Shown here in pieces: positions 3,749 through 37,800 of a stretch of 39,838 bases of DNA. The translations under genes and the position numbers were made by a program. How positions within the stretch are numbered: the stretch's first letter is position 1; each line of letters starts with the position of its first letter. The DNA is from Candidatus Peregrinibacteria bacterium. Its GTDB lineage: Bacteria > Patescibacteriota > Gracilibacteria > UBA1369 > LOWO2-01-FULL-3. A model generated the notes under the pieces. The model did not search any database, had not been told where the DNA came from, and saw nothing but the letters and a program-made list of their open reading frames with translations. The stretch spans positions 1-39,838 of the forward strand of contig JACRIB010000016.1 of the NCBI GenBank assembly GCA_016235895.1, written 5' to 3'.

Positions 3749-4269
3749 CTAAATATGAAAAATTAATTCAGTACGCTTTGCGCATCATCGCTAAAAAACG
3801 TTATACCACTTTTGAAATTGAAAAAAAGTTGAAGCTGTTTTTGGCAAGGCAGGCCTGCCTGCCGGACAGGCAGAAGAAATTGGCAAAGGAGAACGCCGAG
3901 GAAGAGACCGAAGCCATCAATGCCGTGCTCGCAAGGCTGCAAGAATTAAAATATTTGGATGATTCAGTTTATGCCGATGATTATATCGCGGATAGAAAAA
4001 AGTTCAGACCTCGCGGCAAGTTTTTACTTGCCCGAGAATTAAAAAAGAAAGGACTGGATGCGGACTTGATTCAAAACGCCCTAGAAAAGCAAAAGTCAGA
4101 CGAGTCCGAAACCGCAGTTAGAGCCCTGGAAAAAAAGTCCAGGCAATGGCATGATATTCCATTACCAAAGCAGAGAGAGAGAGCTTATCGCTTTCTCTCT
4201 GCCCGGGGCTTCGATTCGGATGCTATTTACAAAGCCATAAGTTGCTGTTACAATCGGGCCATAGAGTAG
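3745..4269 (+). CDS. recX: RecX regulatory protein
   Basis: ATGA overlap with the recA stop. Helical-repeat protein with RecX-like motifs ([30 protein letters not shown]). Confidence 0.8.
3847..3873. repeat. GC-rich palindromic element inside recX
   Basis: AGGCAGG/CCTGCCT palindrome followed by the CTGCC-GGACA-GGCAG hairpin. The 17-mer 3857-3873 is identical to 5793-5809. Confidence 0.7.
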
Positions 4270-5605: not shown

Positions 5606-5700
5606 TGCTATAATAATGGGATATTTTCGAACCCACAGAGCGCTTGCGTTCCGGCGAGCCTAAGGGCGAGCATGGTGAGCGAAGCGAAAACCTATTATTT
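5606..5700 (+). promoter_or_regulatory. extended -10 (TGcTATAAT, 5606-5614) plus GC-rich leader of pilB
   Basis: The leader 5629-5690 is GC-rich and contains GCGAGC-CTAAGG-GCGAGC (5654-5671). It is open in frame with pilB from TTG 5644, so translation cannot be excluded. Confidence 0.4.
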
Positions 5701-7494
5701 ATGGCAGACGATAAGGCTATACAAGCAGCCCAACAACTGGAAAAGGACCTGCAGGCCAAAAAAATTCAAGAAGCCGGCGGTGAAACAAGCTCGCCTGCCG
5801 GACAGGCAGGCGCGAAAACGGCCGTAAAAGATAATTCAAAAAATGCCGCCGAAACTCAAGTTGTTCTTACCGGTATGACCGGTATCAATCGGGAATTTCA
5901 GGAAAAATCGGTCTTGAAACAGGCCGAATCGCTGAATTTGCCGTATGTGAATATCGGCAAGACCCCACTAAATCCGGATTTCTTGAAATTGGTGGATCTT
6001 GAAACGGCTAAAAAAGCGCGTATTGTTCCATTTTTCAGAGTGGGTAAAAAAGTGCGTGTGGCCGTGCAGGACAGCAATAATCCCGATACCCAAGCCGTAA
6101 TCAAGTCTTTGCAGGAAAAAGGTTTTGAAATCAATTTGAATCTGGCTTCGTCCGCGGGTATTGATGATGCGCTCTACATTTACGACCAGACCCAGAAGTA
6201 CAGAAAAATGGAAATCGTGGAAAGTGTGGAAAAAAAATCCATCAAAACTTACGAAAAAGAAATTGCCACTTTGAAAGAATTGACGACTAAACTCGACAGC
6301 GTGACGGCCGAAGAAGGCTTGAATCTGCTCAATGTCGGCGCCATGAAGACCGGTGCTTCCGATGTGCATTATGAGCCCAATGAAAAAACGGTAATCGTGA
6401 GATTTCGTATTGATGGCGTTCTACATAAAGTTTTTGAAATCAAACCGGACACTTATATCAAAATTGTAAATCAACTCAAGTACAACAGCAGGATGAGGCT
6501 CAATGTCACGACGGTGCCGCAAGACGGACGTTATGATTTCTTGTTCAATGACCAGAGAATCGCGGTGCGTGTTTCTTCCATTCCAACGCCTTATACCGAG
6601 TCGTTCGTATGCAGATATTTGCCGAGCGAAGAGATTACCTTGAGTTTTGAAGAACTGGGATTTCAGGGCTTGGCGCTAATAAAATTGCAGAAAGTTTGTG
6701 AAATTTCTCATGGCATGGTGCTGGTCACGGGCCCTACCGGTTCGGGAAAAACAACCACGCTGTATTCCATTTTGAGTAAAATGAATACGCCTGAGGCGAA
6801 GATTATTACACTGGAGGATCCGGTGGAATACAATTTGCGCGGGGTGACCCAGAGCCAGATCGATGAAAAAAGAGACTATGATTTTGCCAAAGGTTTGCGC
6901 GCGATTTTGAGGCAGGATCCGGACATCGTGATGCTCGGAGAAATACGTGATTTGGAAACGGCGCAGACGGCCGCGCAGGCGGCGCTTACCGGTCACGTGG
7001 TGCTTTCCACTTTGCATACCAATAGCGCGATAGAAACTATTCCGCGCTTGGTAAATATGGGCTTGCCGCCATTCATGATCGGCCCTTCTTTGGATACCAT
7101 TGTGGCCCAGAGGTTGGTGAGAAAAATGTGTCCAAAATGTTCTACCATGGAGCCGATTTCCGATTCCGCCAAAAAGGAATTTGAAGCAATTATGACGAAT
7201 TTGAAAAATGTAAATCCGGCGGTGGTGGTGAATATTCCCGAAAAAATTCCGGCCGCTCACGGCTGTGATGACTGCAGCCAGACGGGGTATAAAGGCCGTT
7301 TGGTTATTTGCGAAGTGATTACTTTGAATAATGCCTTGAAAGATTTGATTTTAAATAAGGCCAGTCTGGTGGATTTGATTGGCGCGGCCAGAAAAGATGG
7401 CATGACTACCATGAAAGAAGATGGATTTTTGAAAGTGGCGCAGGGTCTTACTACGCTGGAAGAAGTCTATCGTGTGACTAACGTTTTAGATTAG
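5701..7494 (+). CDS. pilB: type IV pilus / type II secretion assembly ATPase (PilB/GspE family)
   Basis: GSPII_E N-terminal-like region, Walker A GPTGSGKTT, LRQDPDI, and a tetracysteine CPKC...CDDC motif. Confidence 0.9.
   Translation: MADDKAIQAAQQLEKDLQAKKIQEAGGETSSPAGQAGAKTAVKDNSKNAAETQVVLTGMTGINREFQEKSVLKQAESLNLPYVNIGKTPLNPDFLKLVDLETAKKARIVPFFRVGKKVRVAVQDSNNPDTQAVIKSLQEKGFEINLNLASSAGIDDALYIYDQTQKYRKMEIVESVEKKSIKTYEKEIATLKELTTKLDSVTAEEGLNLLNVGAMKTGASDVHYEPNEKTVIVRFRIDGVLHKVFEIKPDTYIKIVNQLKYNSRMRLNVTTVPQDGRYDFLFNDQRIAVRVSSIPTPYTESFVCRYLPSEEITLSFEELGFQGLALIKLQKVCEISHGMVLVTGPTGSGKTTTLYSILSKMNTPEAKIITLEDPVEYNLRGVTQSQIDEKRDYDFAKGLRAILRQDPDIVMLGEIRDLETAQTAAQAALTGHVVLSTLHTNSAIETIPRLVNMGLPPFMIGPSLDTIVAQRLVRKMCPKCSTMEPISDSAKKEFEAIMTNLKNVNPAVVVNIPEKIPAAHGCDDCSQTGYKGRLVICEVITLNNALKDLILNKASLVDLIGAARKDGMTTMKEDGFLKVAQGLTTLEEVYRVTNVLD
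5789..5814. repeat. GC-rich palindromic element inside pilB
   Basis: GCTCGC followed by CGCCTGCC-GGACA-GGCAGGCG (8-bp perfect stem, 5792-5812). Confidence 0.7.
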
Positions 7495-20734: not shown

Positions 20735-20995
20735 ATGGAAAAACAATACGTAAAAGAATTGGCAAAAACGGTGGCTTCAATAAGGGATAATGAGTTGGCG
20801 GAGGCATTCCTGCACAATATCCTGACTCCCGCTGAATTGGATGAAATATCCAAGAGATTACAGATCGTAAAGCTTCTGATGAAAGGTGTTTCCCAGCGAG
20901 ATGTAGCCAAGAAATTGGGTGTAAGCATGGGCACTGTAAGTCGTGGATCGCGAGAACTTAAATATGGTGAAAATGGTTTTAAAAAAATATTGTAA
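20735..20995 (+). CDS. Trp-repressor-family (TrpR/YerC) protein
   Basis: LTPAELDEISKRLQIVKLL and the HTH SQRDVAKKLGVSMGTVSRGS resemble TrpR. Confidence 0.75.
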   Translation: MEKQYVKELAKTVASIRDNELAEAFLHNILTPAELDEISKRLQIVKLLMKGVSQRDVAKKLGVSMGTVSRGSRELKYGENGFKKIL

Positions 20996-22415
20996 AGAAA
21001 TAAAGTGTGAGGATGCCTCGAAAGTTTTTTCCAGAATAATTGGATTATCCGAGAAAAATTTTTTATTGGAATCCAAGGATATTTCTCATATTTATGGCAG
21101 GTTGAGTCTGATGGGTGTGGATCCGGTGCTGGAAATACGAGGCAAGAATAATGGCTTCGGAATTGAGATTTTGAATGGTCGCGGTAAAAAATATTTGCAC
21201 GAATTGGCTGATAAAGATTTGAAGATTTGTGATAGTTTTAAAAGAACGAAAACGGGAATCGAGAGTGTTGTAAAAAAATCTAAAAATAAAAATATTTCGC
21301 AAATTATTAGATTGTTTATTAAAAAATTTAAGCAGGAGAAAAAAGAATTGATTGGTTTATATGGTGCGGTGGCTTACGATTTTATCAGATTATTCGAAGA
21401 TATTCCGGAAATTTTGTCTGATGGCGGAGTGGATGATTTCAGATTGTGTTTATATGATACTTTCGTGTTTTTTGATCACTTGAAGGATAAAGCGGAGATT
21501 GTGGCCTATCGCGAAACCATAAAAGAAGGTGAAAAAGTGGCGGAAAGTTTGGCAAGGAAAGTTTGCGGAAAAGACATAAAATTTGGCTTTAAAATCAAAA
21601 ATGCTAAATTTGGACTGGACAAAGAAAGGTACAAAGATTTGGTGAAAGATGCCAAGGATTTGGCTAAGCGTGGCGAGTTATTTGAGGTTGTGTACTCAAA
21701 TACTTTAAGGGCGGATTTTAGCGGGAAGCCTTTTGCTTTGTATCAAAAATATCGAGAAGTGAATCCCTCGCCTTATCTTTTTTATTTTGATTTTTGTGAT
21801 GAACAATTGGTGGGGGCTTCTCCGGAAATGATGGTGAGAGTGGAAAACGGTTTGGTGCATCTAAGGCCGATTTCGGGTACGGCAAAAAGGGGGGATGATC
21901 CAATCGAGGATCACGAAAATATGTTGGCTTTATTGGCCAGTGAAAAAGAGCGTGCCGAGCTTGATATGCTTATAGATTTGGGGCGTAATGATTTAGCCAT
22001 TGTTTGCGAACCGGGAATTGAAATCAGTGATTATCGTTTCGTGGAAAAATATTCAAAAGTAATGCATACGGTGGCTCATTTGAGCGGTAAATTGCGCAGC
22101 GAATGCACCGCTTTGGACGCTCTTATCGCTTGTTTAAATGCCGGTACTTTGACCGGTGCGCCCAAGGTCGCGGCGATGATCGAAATTGAGAAAAAAGAAG
22201 ATTCAAGACGTGGCTATTATGGCGGCACCGTGGGCTATTTTGCTTTTTCGGGAGAAATGGATACCGGCATAATTATTCGTACGGCACATATAAAAAATGG
22301 CAGTTTGAGCTTTAGAAGCGGCGCTACTTTACTCTACGATTCCGATCCTGAAGCCGAATACCAGGAAACGATGAATAAAGCGCGGGCTTTTTTAACAACT
22401 TTTCAATATGAATAA
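20943..22415 (+). CDS. trpE: anthranilate synthase component I
   Basis: LRPISGTAKRG, GAPKVAAMIEIE and RRGYYGGTVGYF. The true start is probably 20964 or 20973, because the ORF-track start overlaps the trpR-like gene. Confidence 0.9.
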   Translation: MDRENLNMVKMVLKKYCKEIKCEDASKVFSRIIGLSEKNFLLESKDISHIYGRLSLMGVDPVLEIRGKNNGFGIEILNGRGKKYLHELADKDLKICDSFKRTKTGIESVVKKSKNKNISQIIRLFIKKFKQEKKELIGLYGAVAYDFIRLFEDIPEILSDGGVDDFRLCLYDTFVFFDHLKDKAEIVAYRETIKEGEKVAESLARKVCGKDIKFGFKIKNAKFGLDKERYKDLVKDAKDLAKRGELFEVVYSNTLRADFSGKPFALYQKYREVNPSPYLFYFDFCDEQLVGASPEMMVRVENGLVHLRPISGTAKRGDDPIEDHENMLALLASEKERAELDMLIDLGRNDLAIVCEPGIEISDYRFVEKYSKVMHTVAHLSGKLRSECTALDALIACLNAGTLTGAPKVAAMIEIEKKEDSRRGYYGGTVGYFAFSGEMDTGIIIRTAHIKNGSLSFRSGATLLYDSDPEAEYQETMNKARAFLTTFQYE

Positions 22416-23034
22416 TATGGTGATAAAAAAAGGAAAAGAGAGAGAAAAGAAAATTTTTAAAAAAATTTTCTTGTTAGATAATTTCGATTCGTTTACTTTC
22501 AATTTGGTGGATTATTTTAGGCAGCTGGGATGCGAAGTTTTTGTTTATAGAAACGACGTAGACGTTGGTGTCGTGGACAAAGTGAAACCGGATTTGATTG
22601 TTTTTTCGCCCGGGCCATCGGTGCCGAAGAATGCCGGCAATATGATGAAAATAATTGATAAATATCATAAAAAATATCCGATGTTTGGGGTGTGCTTGGG
22701 TCATGAAGCTTTTGTGGAATACTTTGGTGGCAGTTTGAAATTCGTGAAGCCGGTGCATGGAAGAAATAGTCCGATTGAGCACGATGGAAAGACTATTTTT
22801 AGTGGAATTGAGCCTGGATTTTTGGCTGGCAGATATCATTCTCTTTGTGCAGATAAAGTGCCTGCGTGTTTTGAAGTTAGTGCTAAATTTGAAGGATTGG
22901 TGATGGCGATGAGACATAAAACTTTGCCAATTGAAGGGGTGCAGTTTCATCCGGAATCGGTGTTGACCATGAAGCATGGAAATGGCTTCAAGATGATAGA
23001 AAACGTAGTTAATAAAAAATTTGCCAATGTTTAA
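22408..23034 (+). CDS. trpG: anthranilate synthase component II (glutamine amidotransferase)
   Basis: LLDNFDSFTFNL, GVCLGHEA and GVQFHPES. Confidence 0.9.
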   Translation: MNNMVIKKGKEREKKIFKKIFLLDNFDSFTFNLVDYFRQLGCEVFVYRNDVDVGVVDKVKPDLIVFSPGPSVPKNAGNMMKIIDKYHKKYPMFGVCLGHEAFVEYFGGSLKFVKPVHGRNSPIEHDGKTIFSGIEPGFLAGRYHSLCADKVPACFEVSAKFEGLVMAMRHKTLPIEGVQFHPESVLTMKHGNGFKMIENVVNKKFANV

Positions 23035-24724
23035 GAAAAAGGAAATTAGGGCTTTTTTGAATGACTCAATTGCGGGGAAATTGTGTGTGGATGAACAGGT
23101 AAAATTTTTGGCGGAATTCACGCCAGAGAAAGTCACTGCCGAGCAGCTAAAAATATTTGCAAAATTTATGTTAAGCAAAATCACCACCAAGCTGAAAATG
23201 CCTGGAGCAATTGACATTTGTGGTACCGGTGGGTCGGGTTTAGCGCGTATAAATACGTCCACAATTGCGGCTTTTATTCTTACCGAGTTGGGCGTGGGAG
23301 TTGCTAAGCACGGCAACAAAGCGGCGAGTGGCAGATGTGGCAGTTTCGATCTACTGGAAGCGCTGGGTGTGCAGATTGACAAGAGCCCCGAAGAGCTGGA
23401 AAAAATGTATAGGAAAAAAGGCTTGGCATTTATTTTTGCCAGAAATTTCCATCCGGTTATGAAGCATTTTGCGGAGGCAAGAAAAATTCTTGGCAAACCT
23501 ACAATTCTGAATTTGCTTGGCCCTTTGCTTAATCCGGCCGAGCCTAAAATGCAGATTATTGGAACGAGTTTCAAGGGTCAAATGAGAATGATCGCTCAAA
23601 CAGCGAAGCTTTTGGGAAAGAAAAATGTGTTAATAGTAAGGGGTGAAGATGGCTTGGATGAGGTCACATTGACCGGTAAAACTGACGTGGTGGAGTTGAG
23701 TGATGGGAAAATTAAAGAATATCAAATTCGGCCGGAGGATTTTGGGTTGAAAGCCGTTGATTTTGCGGAAATTAGTGGTGGAAATTTGGAAACTAACAAG
23801 AAAATTGCTGAGGAAATTCTATGTGGTGAACGAAAAGATAGTAAAGCTGATTTGGTCTTTGTGAATTGTGCCTTAGTACTGAAAATGATGGGGAAAGTTG
23901 AGGCTTTGAGAGATGGATATGAGTTGGCAAAAAGTGTTAGCGGGAAGAGGAAATTAGAGGCTTGCAGGGGAAATGTCTTAGAGGAGATTGCTGCTTCTAA
24001 AATAATCAAGAAGGCCACGAGGAATTTTTTTGAGACTTTATTCAAAAAAAGCGCTCGCGGTGCCTTGCCTACCGGCAGGCAGGCTCGCGCTTTGATTGCC
24101 GAAGTGAAATTTGCTTCGCCAAGCAAAGGGAAAATTTATAAAGGGAAAATTGGCGCTGAAACAGCGGTGAAAATTGCTAAATTATATGAAAAATATGGAG
24201 CAAGCGCCGTGTCAGTTTTAACTGATGAAAAATATTTTAATGGCAGTTTTGAATATTTGAAAAAAGTAAAAGAAGTGACAAAAAATGTGCCGATCCTATG
24301 TAAGGATTTCATTGTAACCGAATATCAAATTTTTAAAGCGCGAGAATATGGCGCAGATGCAATTTTGCTGATTGCTAAACTGCTTACTGTAGGGCAAATG
24401 CAGCATTTTTTGAAACTTGCAAGGAGCTTAAGTATGGAATGTTTGGTTGAAGTTCACAACGAAGAAGAATTGGCAAAAGTTCTAAAAACTGATGCGAAAA
24501 TCATTGGCATAAATAATAGAAATTTGAGTGATTTTACGATTGATTTGGAGACTACAAATAGGCTGGTGAAGCAAATTCCAAAAGATAAGATAATTGTTGC
24601 GGAAAGCGGCATATCCAGCCGTGAAGATTTGAATAAATTAGATAAAAGAGTCGATGCGATACTTGTCGGCACCGGCTTAATGAGTGCGAAAAATATAACC
24701 AAGAAAATTCATGAACTCACTTAA
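23021..24724 (+). CDS. fusion: anthranilate phosphoribosyltransferase (TrpD) :: indole-3-glycerol-phosphate synthase (TrpC)
   Basis: The N-terminal half has CGTGGSG and HGNKAASGRCGSFDLLEALG. The C-terminal half has LIAEVKFASPSKG and LTDEKYFNGS. There is no TrpF-sized segment. Confidence 0.85.
   Translation: MPMFKKKEIRAFLNDSIAGKLCVDEQVKFLAEFTPEKVTAEQLKIFAKFMLSKITTKLKMPGAIDICGTGGSGLARINTSTIAAFILTELGVGVAKHGNKAASGRCGSFDLLEALGVQIDKSPEELEKMYRKKGLAFIFARNFHPVMKHFAEARKILGKPTILNLLGPLLNPAEPKMQIIGTSFKGQMRMIAQTAKLLGKKNVLIVRGEDGLDEVTLTGKTDVVELSDGKIKEYQIRPEDFGLKAVDFAEISGGNLETNKKIAEEILCGERKDSKADLVFVNCALVLKMMGKVEALRDGYELAKSVSGKRKLEACRGNVLEEIAASKIIKKATRNFFETLFKKSARGALPTGRQARALIAEVKFASPSKGKIYKGKIGAETAVKIAKLYEKYGASAVSVLTDEKYFNGSFEYLKKVKEVTKNVPILCKDFIVTEYQIFKAREYGADAILLIAKLLTVGQMQHFLKLARSLSMECLVEVHNEEELAKVLKTDAKIIGINNRNLSDFTIDLETTNRLVKQIPKDKIIVAESGISSREDLNKLDKRVDAILVGTGLMSAKNITKKIHELT
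24051..24090. repeat. GC-rich GCTCGC-bounded palindromic element inside the TrpC part
   Basis: GCTCGC (24053-24058), then N24, then GCTCGC (24083-24088). The core GCCTACCGGCAGGCAGG closely resembles the recX/pilB 17-mer. GGCAGGCTCGC is shared with 36476-36486. Confidence 0.65.
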
Positions 24725-25943
24725 AAAATATTTGCTGAATTCGGACGGACATTTCGGAAAATTCGGCGGTAGATATGTCCCGGAATTGCTAATTCCAATA
24801 ATGGAAGAATTGCAGAAAGCCTTTTTGCAAGCCAAAAAAGACTCTTCGTTTAAAAAAGATTTGCTGAATTTGTATCACAATTATTCGGGACGCCCCACAC
24901 CGCTCTATTTCTGTGAAAATCTGACAAGAAAAATCGGCGGTGCAAAAATTTATTTAAAAAATGAGGGATTGAATCACACGGGCGCACATAAAATTAATCA
25001 TTGTCTTGGCCAGGCCTTGCTCGCCAAGCGCATGGGCAAAAAAAGGCTTATTGCTGAGACTGGAGCGGGCCAACACGGACTGGCGACAGCGACGGTTGCC
25101 GCAAAATTTGGTTTAAAATGTCGGGTATATATGGGTGCGCGTGATGTGGAAAGACAGCGCCCGAATGTTTTCTGGATGGAACAATTGGGAGCAGAAGTGA
25201 TTCCGGTCAAAGAGGGTGGGCAGATTTTACGTGATGCAATAAATGCAGCTTTGCGCGATCTTATTTCAAATCCTGAAGACACGCATTACTTGCTTGGCAC
25301 AGTCTGTGGGCCGCATCCCTATCCCGTAATTAACACTTATTTCCAAAAAATCGTGGGCGAGGAAGTAAAAAAACAACTCGGTGCTTTGCCGGATTATTTG
25401 GTGGCGTGTGTGGGTGGTGGCAGCAATGCAATGGGGCTTTTTTATAATTTTCTGGATGACAAAAAAGTGCAGATGTTGGCGGTGGAAGCCGGTGGTAAGG
25501 GCATCAAAAAAGAGAAAGGTAAATTTACGCACGCGGCGCGTTTTCAAGCTGGTGAAGTGGGTGTCGTGGAAGGTTTTAAGTCTTATTTTTTACAAAATTC
25601 TGAAGGGCAAATTGAAGAAACTTTTAGCATTTCGGCCGGCCTGGATTATTCCGGCGTTGGCCCACAGTTGGCTTATCTCCATGATATTGGGCGTGTGGAA
25701 TTTACTTATGCGGTGGATGATGAGGTGATGGCAGCTTATAAATTACTGGCAAAAACCGAGGGAATTTTTGCAGCCCTGGAATCAGCTCACGCCGTTGCCG
25801 GAGCAATAAAATTGGCCAAAAATTTGCCGAAAAATAAAACAATCGTGATGAATTGTTCCGGTCGTGGAGACAAGGACCTTTTTATTGTGACGAAAAAATT
25901 AGGTGATGAAAACTTTGCGAATTTTCTAAAAAAACAAGCATGA
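24711..25943 (+). CDS. trpB: tryptophan synthase beta chain
   Basis: HTGAHKINH (PLP lysine), GAGQHG and GGGSNAMG. Confidence 0.95.
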   Translation: MNSLKKYLLNSDGHFGKFGGRYVPELLIPIMEELQKAFLQAKKDSSFKKDLLNLYHNYSGRPTPLYFCENLTRKIGGAKIYLKNEGLNHTGAHKINHCLGQALLAKRMGKKRLIAETGAGQHGLATATVAAKFGLKCRVYMGARDVERQRPNVFWMEQLGAEVIPVKEGGQILRDAINAALRDLISNPEDTHYLLGTVCGPHPYPVINTYFQKIVGEEVKKQLGALPDYLVACVGGGSNAMGLFYNFLDDKKVQMLAVEAGGKGIKKEKGKFTHAARFQAGEVGVVEGFKSYFLQNSEGQIEETFSISAGLDYSGVGPQLAYLHDIGRVEFTYAVDDEVMAAYKLLAKTEGIFAALESAHAVAGAIKLAKNLPKNKTIVMNCSGRGDKDLFIVTKKLGDENFANFLKKQA

Positions 25944-26716
25944 AAAAATTGATGACGCACATTGTGGCAGGTTATCCTAGCCTGAAAAAGAGTGAGGAAT
26001 TATTGCGTTTAATGGCCAAGAATGGCGCGGATTTCATAGAGATCCAGATCCCTTTTTCTGATCCTGTAGCCGATGGACCGACTATTATGCAGGCGAATCA
26101 AAAGTCACTGGAGGCCGGGACGAAAGTAGAAGATTGTTTTGAATTGATGAAGAAGATGACAAAAATTGGCAGTGAAACGAAGTTTTTATTTATGACCTAT
26201 TTCAATATTCTACACCACTACGGCGTGGAAAAGTTTTGCAGTAGAGCAGCCAAGTGTGGCTGTTATGGCTTGATTGTTCCGGATATGCCGATTGACGAAG
26301 AGGCTCAAGAGCATTACCTGAAAAATTGTAGGAAACATGGGCTGGCGCCTATTCAGATAATCTCGCCTCTCACGCCTGAACGCAGATTAAAAATGATCGC
26401 AAAGGTAGCCGCGCACCCCGCGCGGCATGGAGCCTTGGCATCAGCCGAAGGATTTGTGTATTGCGTTTCGAGATTTGGCACAACTGGACAGGAAAGTAAG
26501 CTCAATCCGCAGCTTAGTTCTTATTTGAAAAAAGTAAAAAAACACATAAAAGTGCCACTGGCTGTTGGCTTTGGAATATCAAATAAAGCCCATGTGGAAG
26601 CTGTTTGGAAGGAGGCTGATATTGCTGTTGTCGGGTCCAAAATTATCAATATTTTGAATGAGAATAGTGGAGATTTGAAGAAGTTGGAGGAGTTCGTGAA
26701 GGGTTTAAAATTGTAA
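25940..26716 (+). CDS. trpA: tryptophan synthase alpha chain
   Basis: EIQIPFSDPVADGPTI, YCVSRFGTTG and GFGIS. Confidence 0.9.
   Translation: MKKLMTHIVAGYPSLKKSEELLRLMAKNGADFIEIQIPFSDPVADGPTIMQANQKSLEAGTKVEDCFELMKKMTKIGSETKFLFMTYFNILHHYGVEKFCSRAAKCGCYGLIVPDMPIDEEAQEHYLKNCRKHGLAPIQIISPLTPERRLKMIAKVAAHPARHGALASAEGFVYCVSRFGTTGQESKLNPQLSSYLKKVKKHIKVPLAVGFGISNKAHVEAVWKEADIAVVGSKIINILNENSGDLKKLEEFVKGLKL
26408..26445. repeat. GC-rich hairpin-containing insert inside trpA
   Basis: CCGCGC-ACCCC-GCGCGG hairpin (26408-26424). CATGGAGCCTTGGCATCAGCC (26425-26445) matches intergenic 12144-12164 at 17 of 21 positions. Confidence 0.6.
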
Positions 26717-36451: not shown

Positions 36452-36503
36452 GCTCGCCTTACCGGGTAGGTGCAGGGCAGGCTCGCTAGAGCGCAAGCGC
36501 TCT
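36452..36503. repeat. GC-rich GCTCGC-bounded element plus AGAGCGC-AA-GCGCTCT palindrome between convergent genes
   Basis: GCTCGC (36452-36457), then N23, then GCTCGC (36481-36486). A perfect 7-bp-arm palindrome at 36488-36503 overlaps the murA stop. Confidence 0.55.
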
Positions 36504-37748
36504 GTCGATTTTGGCTCCCAAGGATCTTAATTTTTCATCGAGCTTTTCGTAGCCGCGATCGATGTAGTAAATATTGGAGATTTCTGTAGTGCCCTCCGCA
36601 ATTAAAGCGGCGATAACCATAGCCGCTCCGGCACGGATATCACAGCTGGAGATAGGCAGACTTTTCAGCTTGCCAGGGCCAATAATCAGGGCCTGATGAG
36701 GATTTAAAAATTCGATATGCGCGCCCATTTTTTCCAACTCAAAAAGATAATTCAAACGTCCTTCAAAAAGAGTTTCAAAAATTTTGCTGACGCCATGCGC
36801 TTGAGTTAATAAAACCGTAAAAGGAGCTTGTAAATCGGTGGCAAAACTGGGATAAACCGCGGTGCGTAGCATTTTGGTGGCATGTAATTCTTTACCGGGA
36901 AAAATTTCCACTGCTGATTTTGAAAGCTTGAATTTACCGCCAATTTCTTCAAGTTTTTGCCAAAAACTGTCGAGATGATCGGGGTTTATTCCCTTGATGG
37001 TGATGTTGCTTTTGGTGGCCACTGCGGCAATAGCAAAAGTACCGGCTTCAAGATAGTCCCCGGTGATGGTGTATTTTCCCCCTTTGAGGGTTTTTACACC
37101 TTTAATTTTTACGTTATTGGTTCCGATGCCGGAAATTTTGGCGCCCATTTTGCACAGAAAATTACAAAGATCCTGAACATGAGGCTCGCAGGCGGCCAGA
37201 CGTATTTCGGTTTCTCCTTCAGCCAAAACAGCGGCCATGATGGCATTTTCCGTAGCGGTAACACTTAATTCAGGCAGAACAATTTTCTTACCTTGGAGTT
37301 TTTTTGCTTTAATATGCAGACCTTTTTGGTCGTCCAAAATTTCGCAACCAAGTTCTTTGAGGGCGTGAGTGTGAGCATGCACGGATCTTTTACCGAGGAC
37401 GCAGCCCCCGGGGAAAGCCATTTTTACCTCACCGAAGCGCTGAATCAAGGGGCCTAAAATCAGGATTGAGGCGCGCATTTTTTTAACGAGATCGTTGGGG
37501 GTGTTTTTACCTTTTAAAGCGGTGGCGTCTATTTCCAAAATATTATTTTTGAAAATGATTTTGGCGCCAAAGCCGGCTAGAATTTTGGCCATGGAATGAA
37601 TATCTTCGATATTCGGCACATTTTCCAAAATCACTTTGCACTTTATCAATAGAGCAGCGCACATAATTGGAAGAGTGGCGTTTTTTGAACCGCTGACCGT
37701 TACTTCTCCACTTAATTTTTGTCCTCCATGGACGATAAAATTTGCCAT
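36486..37748 (-). CDS. murA: UDP-N-acetylglucosamine 1-carboxyvinyltransferase
   Basis: GSKNATLPIM and the active-site loop FPGGCVLGKR. The ATG at 37748 (MANFIVHGG) matches typical MurA N-termini. Confidence 0.95.
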   Translation of the reverse strand: MANFIVHGGQKLSGEVTVSGSKNATLPIMCAALLIKCKVILENVPNIEDIHSMAKILAGFGAKIIFKNNILEIDATALKGKNTPNDLVKKMRASILILGPLIQRFGEVKMAFPGGCVLGKRSVHAHTHALKELGCEILDDQKGLHIKAKKLQGKKIVLPELSVTATENAIMAAVLAEGETEIRLAACEPHVQDLCNFLCKMGAKISGIGTNNVKIKGVKTLKGGKYTITGDYLEAGTFAIAAVATKSNITIKGINPDHLDSFWQKLEEIGGKFKLSKSAVEIFPGKELHATKMLRTAVYPSFATDLQAPFTVLLTQAHGVSKIFETLFEGRLNYLFELEKMGAHIEFLNPHQALIIGPGKLKSLPISSCDIRAGAAMVIAALIAEGTTEISNIYYIDRGYEKLDEKLRSLGAKIDRALAL

Positions 37749-37761
37749 GTTTCTTTTGTAA

Positions 37762-37800
37762 GCTCGCGCCGTGCGCTCGCTGTGCATTTATACAATATTT
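37762..37800 (-). promoter_or_regulatory. TTGTATAAA promoter-like box plus GC-rich 19-mer in the murA leader
   Basis: The minus strand reads TTGTATAAATGCACA-GCGAGCGCACGGCGCGAGC. The 19-mer is identical to 15865-15883. Confidence 0.45.

Follow-up and report, generated by a model that had tools for sequence, protein, structure and literature searches.

What is a short, GC-rich palindromic stretch doing in frame inside a tryptophan biosynthesis gene, and where does the inserted unit begin and end? The stretch in question (GCGCTCGCGGTGCCTTGCCTACCGGCAGGCAGGCTCGCGC, positions 24051-24090) lies in trpC, the second half of a trpD-trpC fusion gene, in a Candidatus Peregrinibacteria contig (NCBI accession no. 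JACRIB010000016.1, assembly GCA_016235895.1). The whole contig segment, 39,838 nucleotides with 41.6% GC, was analysed and is referred to here as the window; by its homologues it is a Peregrinibacteria-like member of the Patescibacteria. A first-pass annotation of this DNA had taken the stretch for a palindromic element bounded by GCTCGC repeats. We consider it likely that it is instead a diverged copy of a very small dispersed hairpin repeat of only 21 nt, non-autonomous, which inserted in frame. The hairpin is read as a very small selfish or neutral mobile element, and its trpC copy as a passenger without demonstrated function.

The host gene encodes anthranilate phosphoribosyltransferase and indole-3-glycerol-phosphate synthase (IGPS) as the two halves of a TrpD-TrpC fusion, with PF00591 at residues 63-306 and PF00218 at residues 322-566 (2.8e-78). 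Solved IGPS structures match the protein (PDB 6bma, E=5e-51), and in its beta1 motif IAE.K.ASPS the residues I357, E359, K361, S364 and P365 are invariant in 54 sequences, as befits an IGPS. Translation of the open reading frame (ORF) gives SARGALPTGRQARA ahead of LIAEVKFASPSKG, as the first-pass annotation had it. Among about 60 TrpD-TrpC homologues inspected at the trpC site, the segment is confined to the window and P0004/L001. Of the closest proteins, which are 76-81% identical, the others lack it and read, for example, FFDALNKKNGRALIAEVK or FFEALDKGGKNGARALIAEVK. The earlier proposal of an in-frame insertion in the N-terminal region of IGPS is thus borne out, the segment being absent from most close orthologues.

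Alignment of the window with syntenic DNA of six relatives at the trp locus revealed that the window and L001 carry 21 extra bases compared with L004, L006 and L007; L003 likewise has a 21-nt gap here. At this site L004 reads AAC ACT CGC GGT followed directly by GCT CGT GTT, while the window reads AGC GCT CGC GGT (GCC TTG CCT ACC GGC AGG CAG) GCT CGC GCT, the codons in parentheses (24062-24082) encoding ALPTGRQ. The insertion therefore amounts to seven residues relative to L004 and ten relative to the shortest orthologues, and not to the 12-14 residues anticipated earlier. In a neighbour-joining tree built from 11,112 shared columns, the window and L001 group together with 100% bootstrap support, followed by L004 and then by (L007, (L003, L006)). 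Together with the pattern of presence and absence, this places a single insertion on the stem shared by the window and its sister lineage L001, where the unit entered a pre-existing site with CTCGCG GTG on its left and CTCGYG on its right. The L004 site could also be pictured as the footprint of an excised hairpin, which is possible, but the tree does not require any excision.

A fuzzy search of the window with the consensus CCTGCCTGCCGGACAGGCAGG, an 8-bp stem (CCTG)2/(CAGG)2 with a 5-nt CCGGA loop, recovered the trpC unit and copies in recX and pilB, all three of them intragenic and all closer to the consensus than chance would give (Table 1; shuffled controls gave 0-0.4 hits, and 0.2 per window even at up to 5 edits). 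A repeat family common to these loci had been suggested earlier, and the search supports it. The trpC core GCCTACCGGCAGGCAG does differ by one substitution and one deleted base from the 17-mer GCCTGCCGGACAGGCAG, which occurs exactly at 3857-73 (recX) and 5793-5809 (pilB); allowing up to 3 mismatches, the 17-mer gives 4 hits counting both strands, or 2 loci, in the window against 0.03 expected. Directly before the recX copy stands AAGGCAGG, which matches the 3′-end of the element itself over 6 nt; the copy is absent from the relatives L009, L010 and L011. The pilB copy is absent from 25 PilB relatives, one of them 86% identical. Both copies, absent from relatives, are therefore younger; they sit in hypervariable linkers, and their insertion boundaries in Table 1 are presumptive.

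A second orthologous locus tells a similar story. As at trpC, the trpB copy is a discrete indel of exactly 21 nt without duplication, here with a 4-nt CAGG microhomology between flank and element end. It is present in L001 and L004, while the window, L003, L006 and L007 show a 21-nt gap. Given the tree, this distribution implies that the window lost precisely these 21 nt or that the copy was gained twice, separately; a discrete loss of a family copy has probably taken place. A variant form of the unit (CCWTGCCTRCCGGCAGGCAGG), also 21 nt long, is found in trpC and trpB of L001 and at an unrelated metagenome locus (L179, 7250).

The family extends far beyond this clade. A collection of species-representative genomes (596 Gb) was scanned with the exact 17-mer and at least 120 stretches matched. 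Among the matches listed, 97 of 126 carry the exact 21-mer within unrelated flanks; for the collection as a whole, chance would give about 0.3. Again among the matches listed, the hosts of exact copies include Bacteroidota, several Patescibacteria lineages, Omnitrophota, Planctomycetota, Nitrospirota and a Woesearchaeote, and the GC content of the carrier loci ranges from 30% to 69%. Copies are also present in the cultured Bacteroidota isolates Aureibaculum, Psychroserpens and Maribacter, and in ten IMG/VR viral contigs, one of which carries the 21-mer three times. The loci with exact copies hold a further 25-30 or so copies at 1-3 edits in 839 kb (about 1 in shuffled sequence); unselected murA loci hold 3 such copies in 638 kb. 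Of the exact copies among the matches listed, 72/97 (74%) fall within open frames of 150 codons or more, which is roughly the ordinary coding density; the element is not excluded from genes, unlike repetitive extragenic palindromic (REP) sequences and MITEs (miniature transposable elements with inverted repeats). Carrier genes include those for methionyl-tRNA synthetase (MetRS), Fe/Mn-superoxide dismutase (SOD), Mfd, Tgt, AroA, MetH, FolD, SufC and methylmalonyl-CoA mutase, and the SOD copy sits in a loop that is variable relative to solved structures.

In two GC-rich IMG/VR contigs (L136, 3250 and L140, 2080), homologous ORFs with 66% DNA identity contain the 21-mer at different positions of the same region, with the peptides ACLPDRQV and TCLPDRQA. 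The ORFs are putative prohead-protease or capsid-type phage proteins, and the differing positions suggest independent insertions in phage genomes. Small CTCCCC-N4-6-GGGGAG hairpins often occur beside or around 21-mer copies in several phyla. In Mucilaginibacter and other Bacteroidota metagenome-assembled genomes (MAGs) and in a viral contig, a composite of about 54-60 nt recurs that consists of GTCTCCCCTACCGGGGGAGA, the 21-mer and TTTAGAGGGG. In its 54-nt form, the copies of a Mucilaginibacter MAG and of a viral contig share 98% identity, and at one locus (L128) it lies in frame within methylmalonyl-CoA mutase. A blastn search with a 62-nt composite against cultured plasmid and phage records gave no match.

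The design of the unit bears on how it can enter genes. The 21-mer amounts to seven codons, and none of its six reading frames contains a stop. Because its first two bases are CC and its last two GG, no junction codon (NNC, NCC, GGN, GNN) can form a stop either. An insertion should therefore be tolerated almost wherever a loop accepts seven residues. The insertion signature is asymmetric. Among the matches listed, 94% of copies, coding and non-coding alike, have a purine immediately 5′ of the element, and the 5′ flank matches the 3′-end of the element (..AGG) over at least 3 nt in 11 of 107 copies, against 1.4 expected; the 3′ flank has no comparable excess. Tandem or abutting copies occur in L064 and L016. 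No target duplication is seen in the filled and empty pairs at trpB and trpC, and at other loci direct repeats nearby are in weak excess only.

This asymmetry, the hairpin and the lack of duplication lead us to propose either single-strand DNA chemistry or microhomology-primed copying. The element would spread non-autonomously and without target-site duplication, landing preferentially 3′ of a purine or of AGG, which equals its own 3′-end. It could be mobilized in trans as a single-strand hairpin by cutting and joining in the style of IS200/IS605 elements or of REPs and their RAYT transposases. Alternatively, microhomology may prime its synthesis, with another copy of the unit or a circular or tandem donor as the template.

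Several observations weigh against the proposal that trpC holds a copy of a mobile repeat. The trpC copy belongs to the variant form, with one extra base in its left arm and a loop one base shorter, and is linked to the consensus through 3 edits over 21 nt together with the sister variants. No HUH or other transposase is found in the 39.8-kb window, which encodes tyrosine recombinases only. The sole sequencing run with the window genome is a groundwater metagenome, consulted as contigs, and no allele without the trpC insert was seen in these Logan contigs, which cannot show absence. Among the matches listed, the frame that gives xLPAGQAG is used in 37 of 81 coding copies and is about 3 times over-represented, which implies that selection on the peptide or a mechanistic bias shapes which copies survive. 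Lastly, two Bacteroidota MetRS genes (L053, 5145 and L078, 620) carry the exact 21-mer at the same codon position, as LPAGQAG between YW..x and TK..FIGKDN, although the proteins are only about 50% identical and the DNA 64% over 242 nt. Neutral vertical inheritance does not predict such a pair; same-site re-insertion, homogenization between copies or selection would be needed.

The MetRS pair also suits the proposal that the hairpin was kept or co-opted in trpC as a nucleic-acid signal, whether as an mRNA stem-loop that slows ribosomes or directs processing or decay, or as a DNA site for a host factor. The predicted stem-loop is stable in both the window (-25.5 kcal/mol, z = -2.8) and L001 (-25.0 kcal/mol), and REP hairpins act on mRNA stability (PMC3733652; PMC12306157). 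We nevertheless regard such a role as unlikely, since most close relatives with the same operon lack the insert, copies of the family occur in both orientations and in unrelated genes, and the z-score in L001 is only -1.35. In addition, the window and L001 copies of trpC differ at 4/21 positions, near the 22% divergence of the aligned region, and the differences are non-compensatory, the same stem pair being hit to give A.C in the window and G.T in L001. Orthologous copies of the family differ at 4/21 and 3/21 positions against 22-24% divergence of the aligned regions, and the trpC copy has decayed at about the neutral rate since its insertion. An Rfam scan at gathering thresholds returned two tRNA-Ser genes only.

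The boundaries proposed in the first-pass annotation point to a different unit, a palindrome some 36 nt long that is delimited by GCTCGC and akin to 36452-36486; GCTCGC would then form its termini or, in another version of the model, a target duplication. GCTCGC-N(6-30)-GCTCGC pairs are over-represented in the window (5 hits against 0.05 expected), a single GCTCGCG stands at the empty site of L006, and removal of 30 nt would give the length of the 555-residue orthologues. The two GCTCGC copies do lie where they had been placed (Table 1), but they do not bound the insertion. L004 keeps CTCGCG-GTG-CTCGTG without the hairpin and lacks only the 21 nt, so the CTCGCG...CTCGYG repeat consists of host Ala-Arg codons and is neither an element end nor a target duplication. 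Empty sites at the right-hand copy read GGA GCT CGC GCT TTA (L006) and GGA GCT CGT GCA (L007); in the window, the final base of the 21-mer doubles as the first G of this copy. A unit of 36-40 nt is thus not borne out, the indel against L004 being exactly 21 nt. The trpB insertion of the same family has neither such flanks nor a duplication, none of the 97 exact copies elsewhere among the matches listed is flanked by GCTCGC, and the other GCTCGC pairs are window-specific and absent from about 190 kb of relatives. We also considered GCTCGCG as a 7-bp target duplication around a 23-nt core (30 nt in all); this was dropped in view of the repeat without hairpin in L004 and the clean 21-nt insertion in trpB.

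The claimed relationship to 36452-36486 fares no better. That segment does have the form GCTCGC-N23-GCTCGC, is 35 nt long and shares the 11-mer GGCAGGCTCGC with trpC (2 hits against 0.34 expected, which alone is weak evidence), but it resembles the 21-mer at no level up to 5 edits and aligns instead with a module at 5630-5671. The notion of one element type in coding and non-coding DNA therefore holds for the 21-nt family, which has intergenic copies in L007 and in many other genomes, and not for 36452-86. Taken together, a GCTCGC-bounded element appears decidedly improbable.

The protein context accords with a tolerated passenger. In an AlphaFold2 model of the fusion protein built with 54 homologues (mean predicted local distance difference test score, pLDDT, of 94), ALPTGRQ occupies residues 346-352 in a coil between the helix 334-342 and strand beta1 (355-360), in a predicted loop just ahead of beta1. 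In TIM barrels the N-terminal end of beta1 lies on the barrel face opposite the catalytic site, and by this general rule a loop extension there should be tolerated. One could argue that the seven residues are an adaptive loop insertion of IGPS whose likeness to other loci is convergent, as the insert was kept in frame in two lineages and, in the model, makes up a small loop closed on itself by a bridge between residues 346 and 352. This is highly improbable, given that the nucleotide string itself recurs in every one of the six frames, between genes and in proteins of unrelated kinds, that most orthologues lack the insert, that the block of residues 341-350 has the lowest confidence in the model (69), and that by the barrel rule the insert would face away from the active site. 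Although most carriers are MAGs and 21 nt is a k-mer size commonly used by assemblers, an assembly or sequencing artefact is scarcely credible, as the trpC copy appears in independent assemblies and samples (window, L008, L001, L002) and has diverged between lineages with the reading frame always kept, and as copies occur in cultured isolates and chromosome-level MAG records.

Literature searches with the 21-nt sequence on both strands and with the peptide LPAGQAG found no published description, and nothing relevant was found on palindromic repeats in Peregrinibacteria. The small dispersed repeats (SDRs) of heterocyst-forming cyanobacteria are reportedly dispersed units of about 21-27 nt whose mobility was deduced from orthologous loci, which are said to nest in or beside other small repeats and to have no associated transposase. 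A comparable size, presence and absence at orthologous loci and nesting beside other hairpins were observed for the 21-mer, which may be of a similar kind. It differs from them in its probably unrelated sequence, its exact occurrence in many phyla and viral contigs, its mostly intragenic location and its seven stop-free codons. The GC clusters of yeast mitochondria are likewise short GC-rich palindromes in an AT-rich genome that occasionally lie in frame in a coding gene. They are organellar, longer (30-50 bp), unrelated in sequence and reported with short flanking duplications.

The nearest concepts are the cyanobacterial SDRs, the Rickettsia palindromic elements (RPEs; PMC10969869) and intragenic REPs (PMC3733652). 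Like RPEs (Ogata et al., 2000, 2002), the 21-mer is palindromic, apparently selfish DNA that enters unrelated housekeeping genes in frame and adds a peptide where the fold allows. RPEs are about 100-150 bp long, confined to Rickettsia and bear a longer conserved peptide (PMC10969869), and they end in CGTC (PMC3733652). The 21-mer shares their in-frame insertion but neither their size nor their sequence, adding seven residues in a cross-phylum range. REPs are likewise imperfect palindromes (20-40 nt), dispersed, sometimes intragenic and without target duplication, and plausibly act as single-strand hairpins. They carry a GTAG or CGTC tag at one end (PMC3733652) and are mobilized by RAYT tyrosine (HUH) transposases (PMC3733652; PMC3116915). 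Both tags are absent from the consensus and from all window copies, and no gene for a RAYT (an IS200/IS605-like Y1 transposase) is present in the 39.8-kb window. The asymmetric flank preference of the 21-mer recalls target recognition by the IS200/IS605 family. REPs are, moreover, mainly extragenic and species-specific, in contrast to the cross-phylum 21-mer and the largely coding location of its exact copies among the matches listed. MITEs resemble the 21-mer in being non-autonomous, in having inverted-repeat ends that form a hairpin and in their possible in-frame fusion with host ORFs, but they measure 50-500 bp and make target-site duplications (PMC10969869), of which the two clean filled and empty pairs (trpB, trpC) show none. 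The tiny size, frame-safe design and cross-phylum identity of the 21-mer set it apart from known selfish palindromes and very small mobile repeats.

If our reading of the trpC stretch holds, the 21-mer is about the smallest DNA unit that behaves like a mobile element, entering essential genes without breaking them, as its length and sequence guarantee an in-frame, stop-free insertion of seven residues in either orientation. It would then give rise to short indels across conserved proteins in general. Indels of this type often serve as phylogenetic markers, a use that recurrent same-site insertions, as in MetRS, would undermine. The family explains odd GC-rich patches in trpC, recX and pilB and separates them from the module families in trpA and around murA and pilB. 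GC-rich islands in AT-rich genomes of candidate phyla need not be functional motifs. The near-identical copies in many phyla also raise the question of which enzyme or vector moves a 21-nt hairpin so far. Tentatively, and with some doubt on our part, the family could represent a distinct class of ultra-small mobile DNA, a frame-safe hairpin that actively spreads inside genomes and also from phylum to phylum, possibly carried by phages. The hairpin and an AGG target would be recognized by an enzyme of single-strand DNA, either dedicated or hijacked, and housekeeping enzymes would have been seeded with loops of seven residues in Bacteroidota, Patescibacteria, Omnitrophota, Planctomycetota and others. 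The hairpin would then be one of a wider set of tiny GC-rich modules that includes CTCCCC-N-GGGGAG and the two further families listed in Table 1.

Table 1. Coordinates of the 21-nt hairpin copies and of other features, numbered by window position unless another locus is named.
Feature	Position	Strand	Remarks
Inserted 21-nt hairpin unit in trpC, CCTTGCCTACCGGCAGGCAGG	24063..24083	+	Exact gap versus L004, L006 and L007; 3 edits from consensus
recX copy in inter-domain linker, CCTGCCTGCCGGACAGGCAGA	3854..3874	+	Encodes ACLPDRQ; 1 edit
pilB copy in variable N-terminal region, CTCGCCTGCCGGACAGGCAGG	5790..5810 (5789-5810 in the fuzzy search)	+	Encodes SPAGQAG; 2 edits
trpC copy of L001	L001 11037-57		4 edits
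trpB copy of L001	L001 12520-40		4 edits
Intergenic copy of L007	L007 4542-62		2 edits
Left GCTCGC (Ala-Arg codons)	24053..24058	+	Host sequence; L004 has ACTCGCGGT-GCTCGTG there without hairpin
Right GCTCGC (Ala-Arg of ARALIAE)	24083..24088	+	Host sequence; present at empty sites
trpD-trpC fusion ORF (host gene)	23021..24724	+	567 codons from TTG start; ORF listing and Pfam
Composites of GTCTCCCCTACCGGGGGAGA, 21-mer and TTTAGAGGGG	L038 5168; L058 616; L125 3182; L128 6090; L135 7548; others		
Family 2, 36-nt internally deleted form in trpA, AAHPARHGALASA	26407-26442		In frame
Family 2, 72-nt form, GCCGCGCACCCCGCGCGTCGCACACCCCATGCGACACCAGGCCTTAGCCTGGAGCATGGAGCCTTGGCATCA	L004 14168-14239; L005 ~6937-7008		In frame in S-adenosylmethionine (SAM) methyltransferase
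Family 2, intergenic window copy	12082-12144		89% identical over 63 nt
Family 3, GC-rich composite at 3′-end of murA	36452..36510		Not of the 21-mer family; no hit at up to 5 edits
Family 3, copy upstream of pilB start, ACAGAGCGCTTGCGTTCCGGCGAGCCTAAGGGCGAGC	5630..5671	+	Homologous to 36452-36510
GCGAGC-N6/7-GCGAGC direct repeats	5654-5671; 15865-15883; 37762-37780		Sense orientation
88-nt insert after TATAAT-like box upstream of YkuD-domain gene	15864-15951		66% GC; window-specific in a comparison with five syntenic relatives
Segment of about 1.18 kb with Fic/DOC-family gene	12040-13218		Gene at 12163-13068, minus strand; inserted between ABC ATPase gene and truncated XerC/D-like integrase

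Other GC-rich modules of the window are distinct from the 21-mer. The family 3 composite at murA combines the GCTCGC-N23-GCTCGC unit with a palindrome (AGAGCGCAAGCGCTCT) that supplies the C-terminal ALAL and the stop codon of murA. MurA relatives end in ...R(I) and a stop without this tail, which is window-specific; the comparison with empty sites is limited to the MurA C-terminus, as synteny downstream of murA differs in all relatives. The composite is 84% complementary to 5630-5661 and has 18 extra bases inside compared with the copy at 5630-5671. Family 2 is repeated elsewhere in the sample, as Logan contig breaks and loose ends at the trpA copy (26408-47) show.

The three GCGAGC pairs lie directly upstream of the likely true starts of pilB, of a YkuD-domain gene and of murA. 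Two of them are an identical 19-mer (GCGAGCGCACGGCGCGAGC), and all are found in window-specific GC-rich inserts that relatives lack. The pairs could represent mobile modules or else a regulatory site peculiar to the lineage. The 88-nt insert upstream of the YkuD-domain gene has no Rfam match. The truncated XerC/D-like integrase next to the Fic/DOC segment (13219-13788) has 189 aa where relatives have 301 aa. The segment lies between direct repeats, each about 60 nt long (GGTGTTTTG.T.TCGCAAAACTT ... TAGGCCCGAG.TAT.GCTCGG), one of them interrupted by a family 2 module.

The trp operon of the window (20943-26716) reads trpE-trpG-trpDC-trpB-trpA, with no trpF (phosphoribosylanthranilate isomerase) gene in the window; in more distant relatives, PF00697 (TrpF) is fused to the TrpDC protein. 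Among the relatives, lineage-specific GC-rich in-frame inserts unlike the 21-mer consensus were also observed, one of 21 nt (GCCACGGCGGAACCGCGCACA) in a uvrD/pcrA helicase gene of L001 (5620-5640) and one of 15 nt in L006 (17643-17657).

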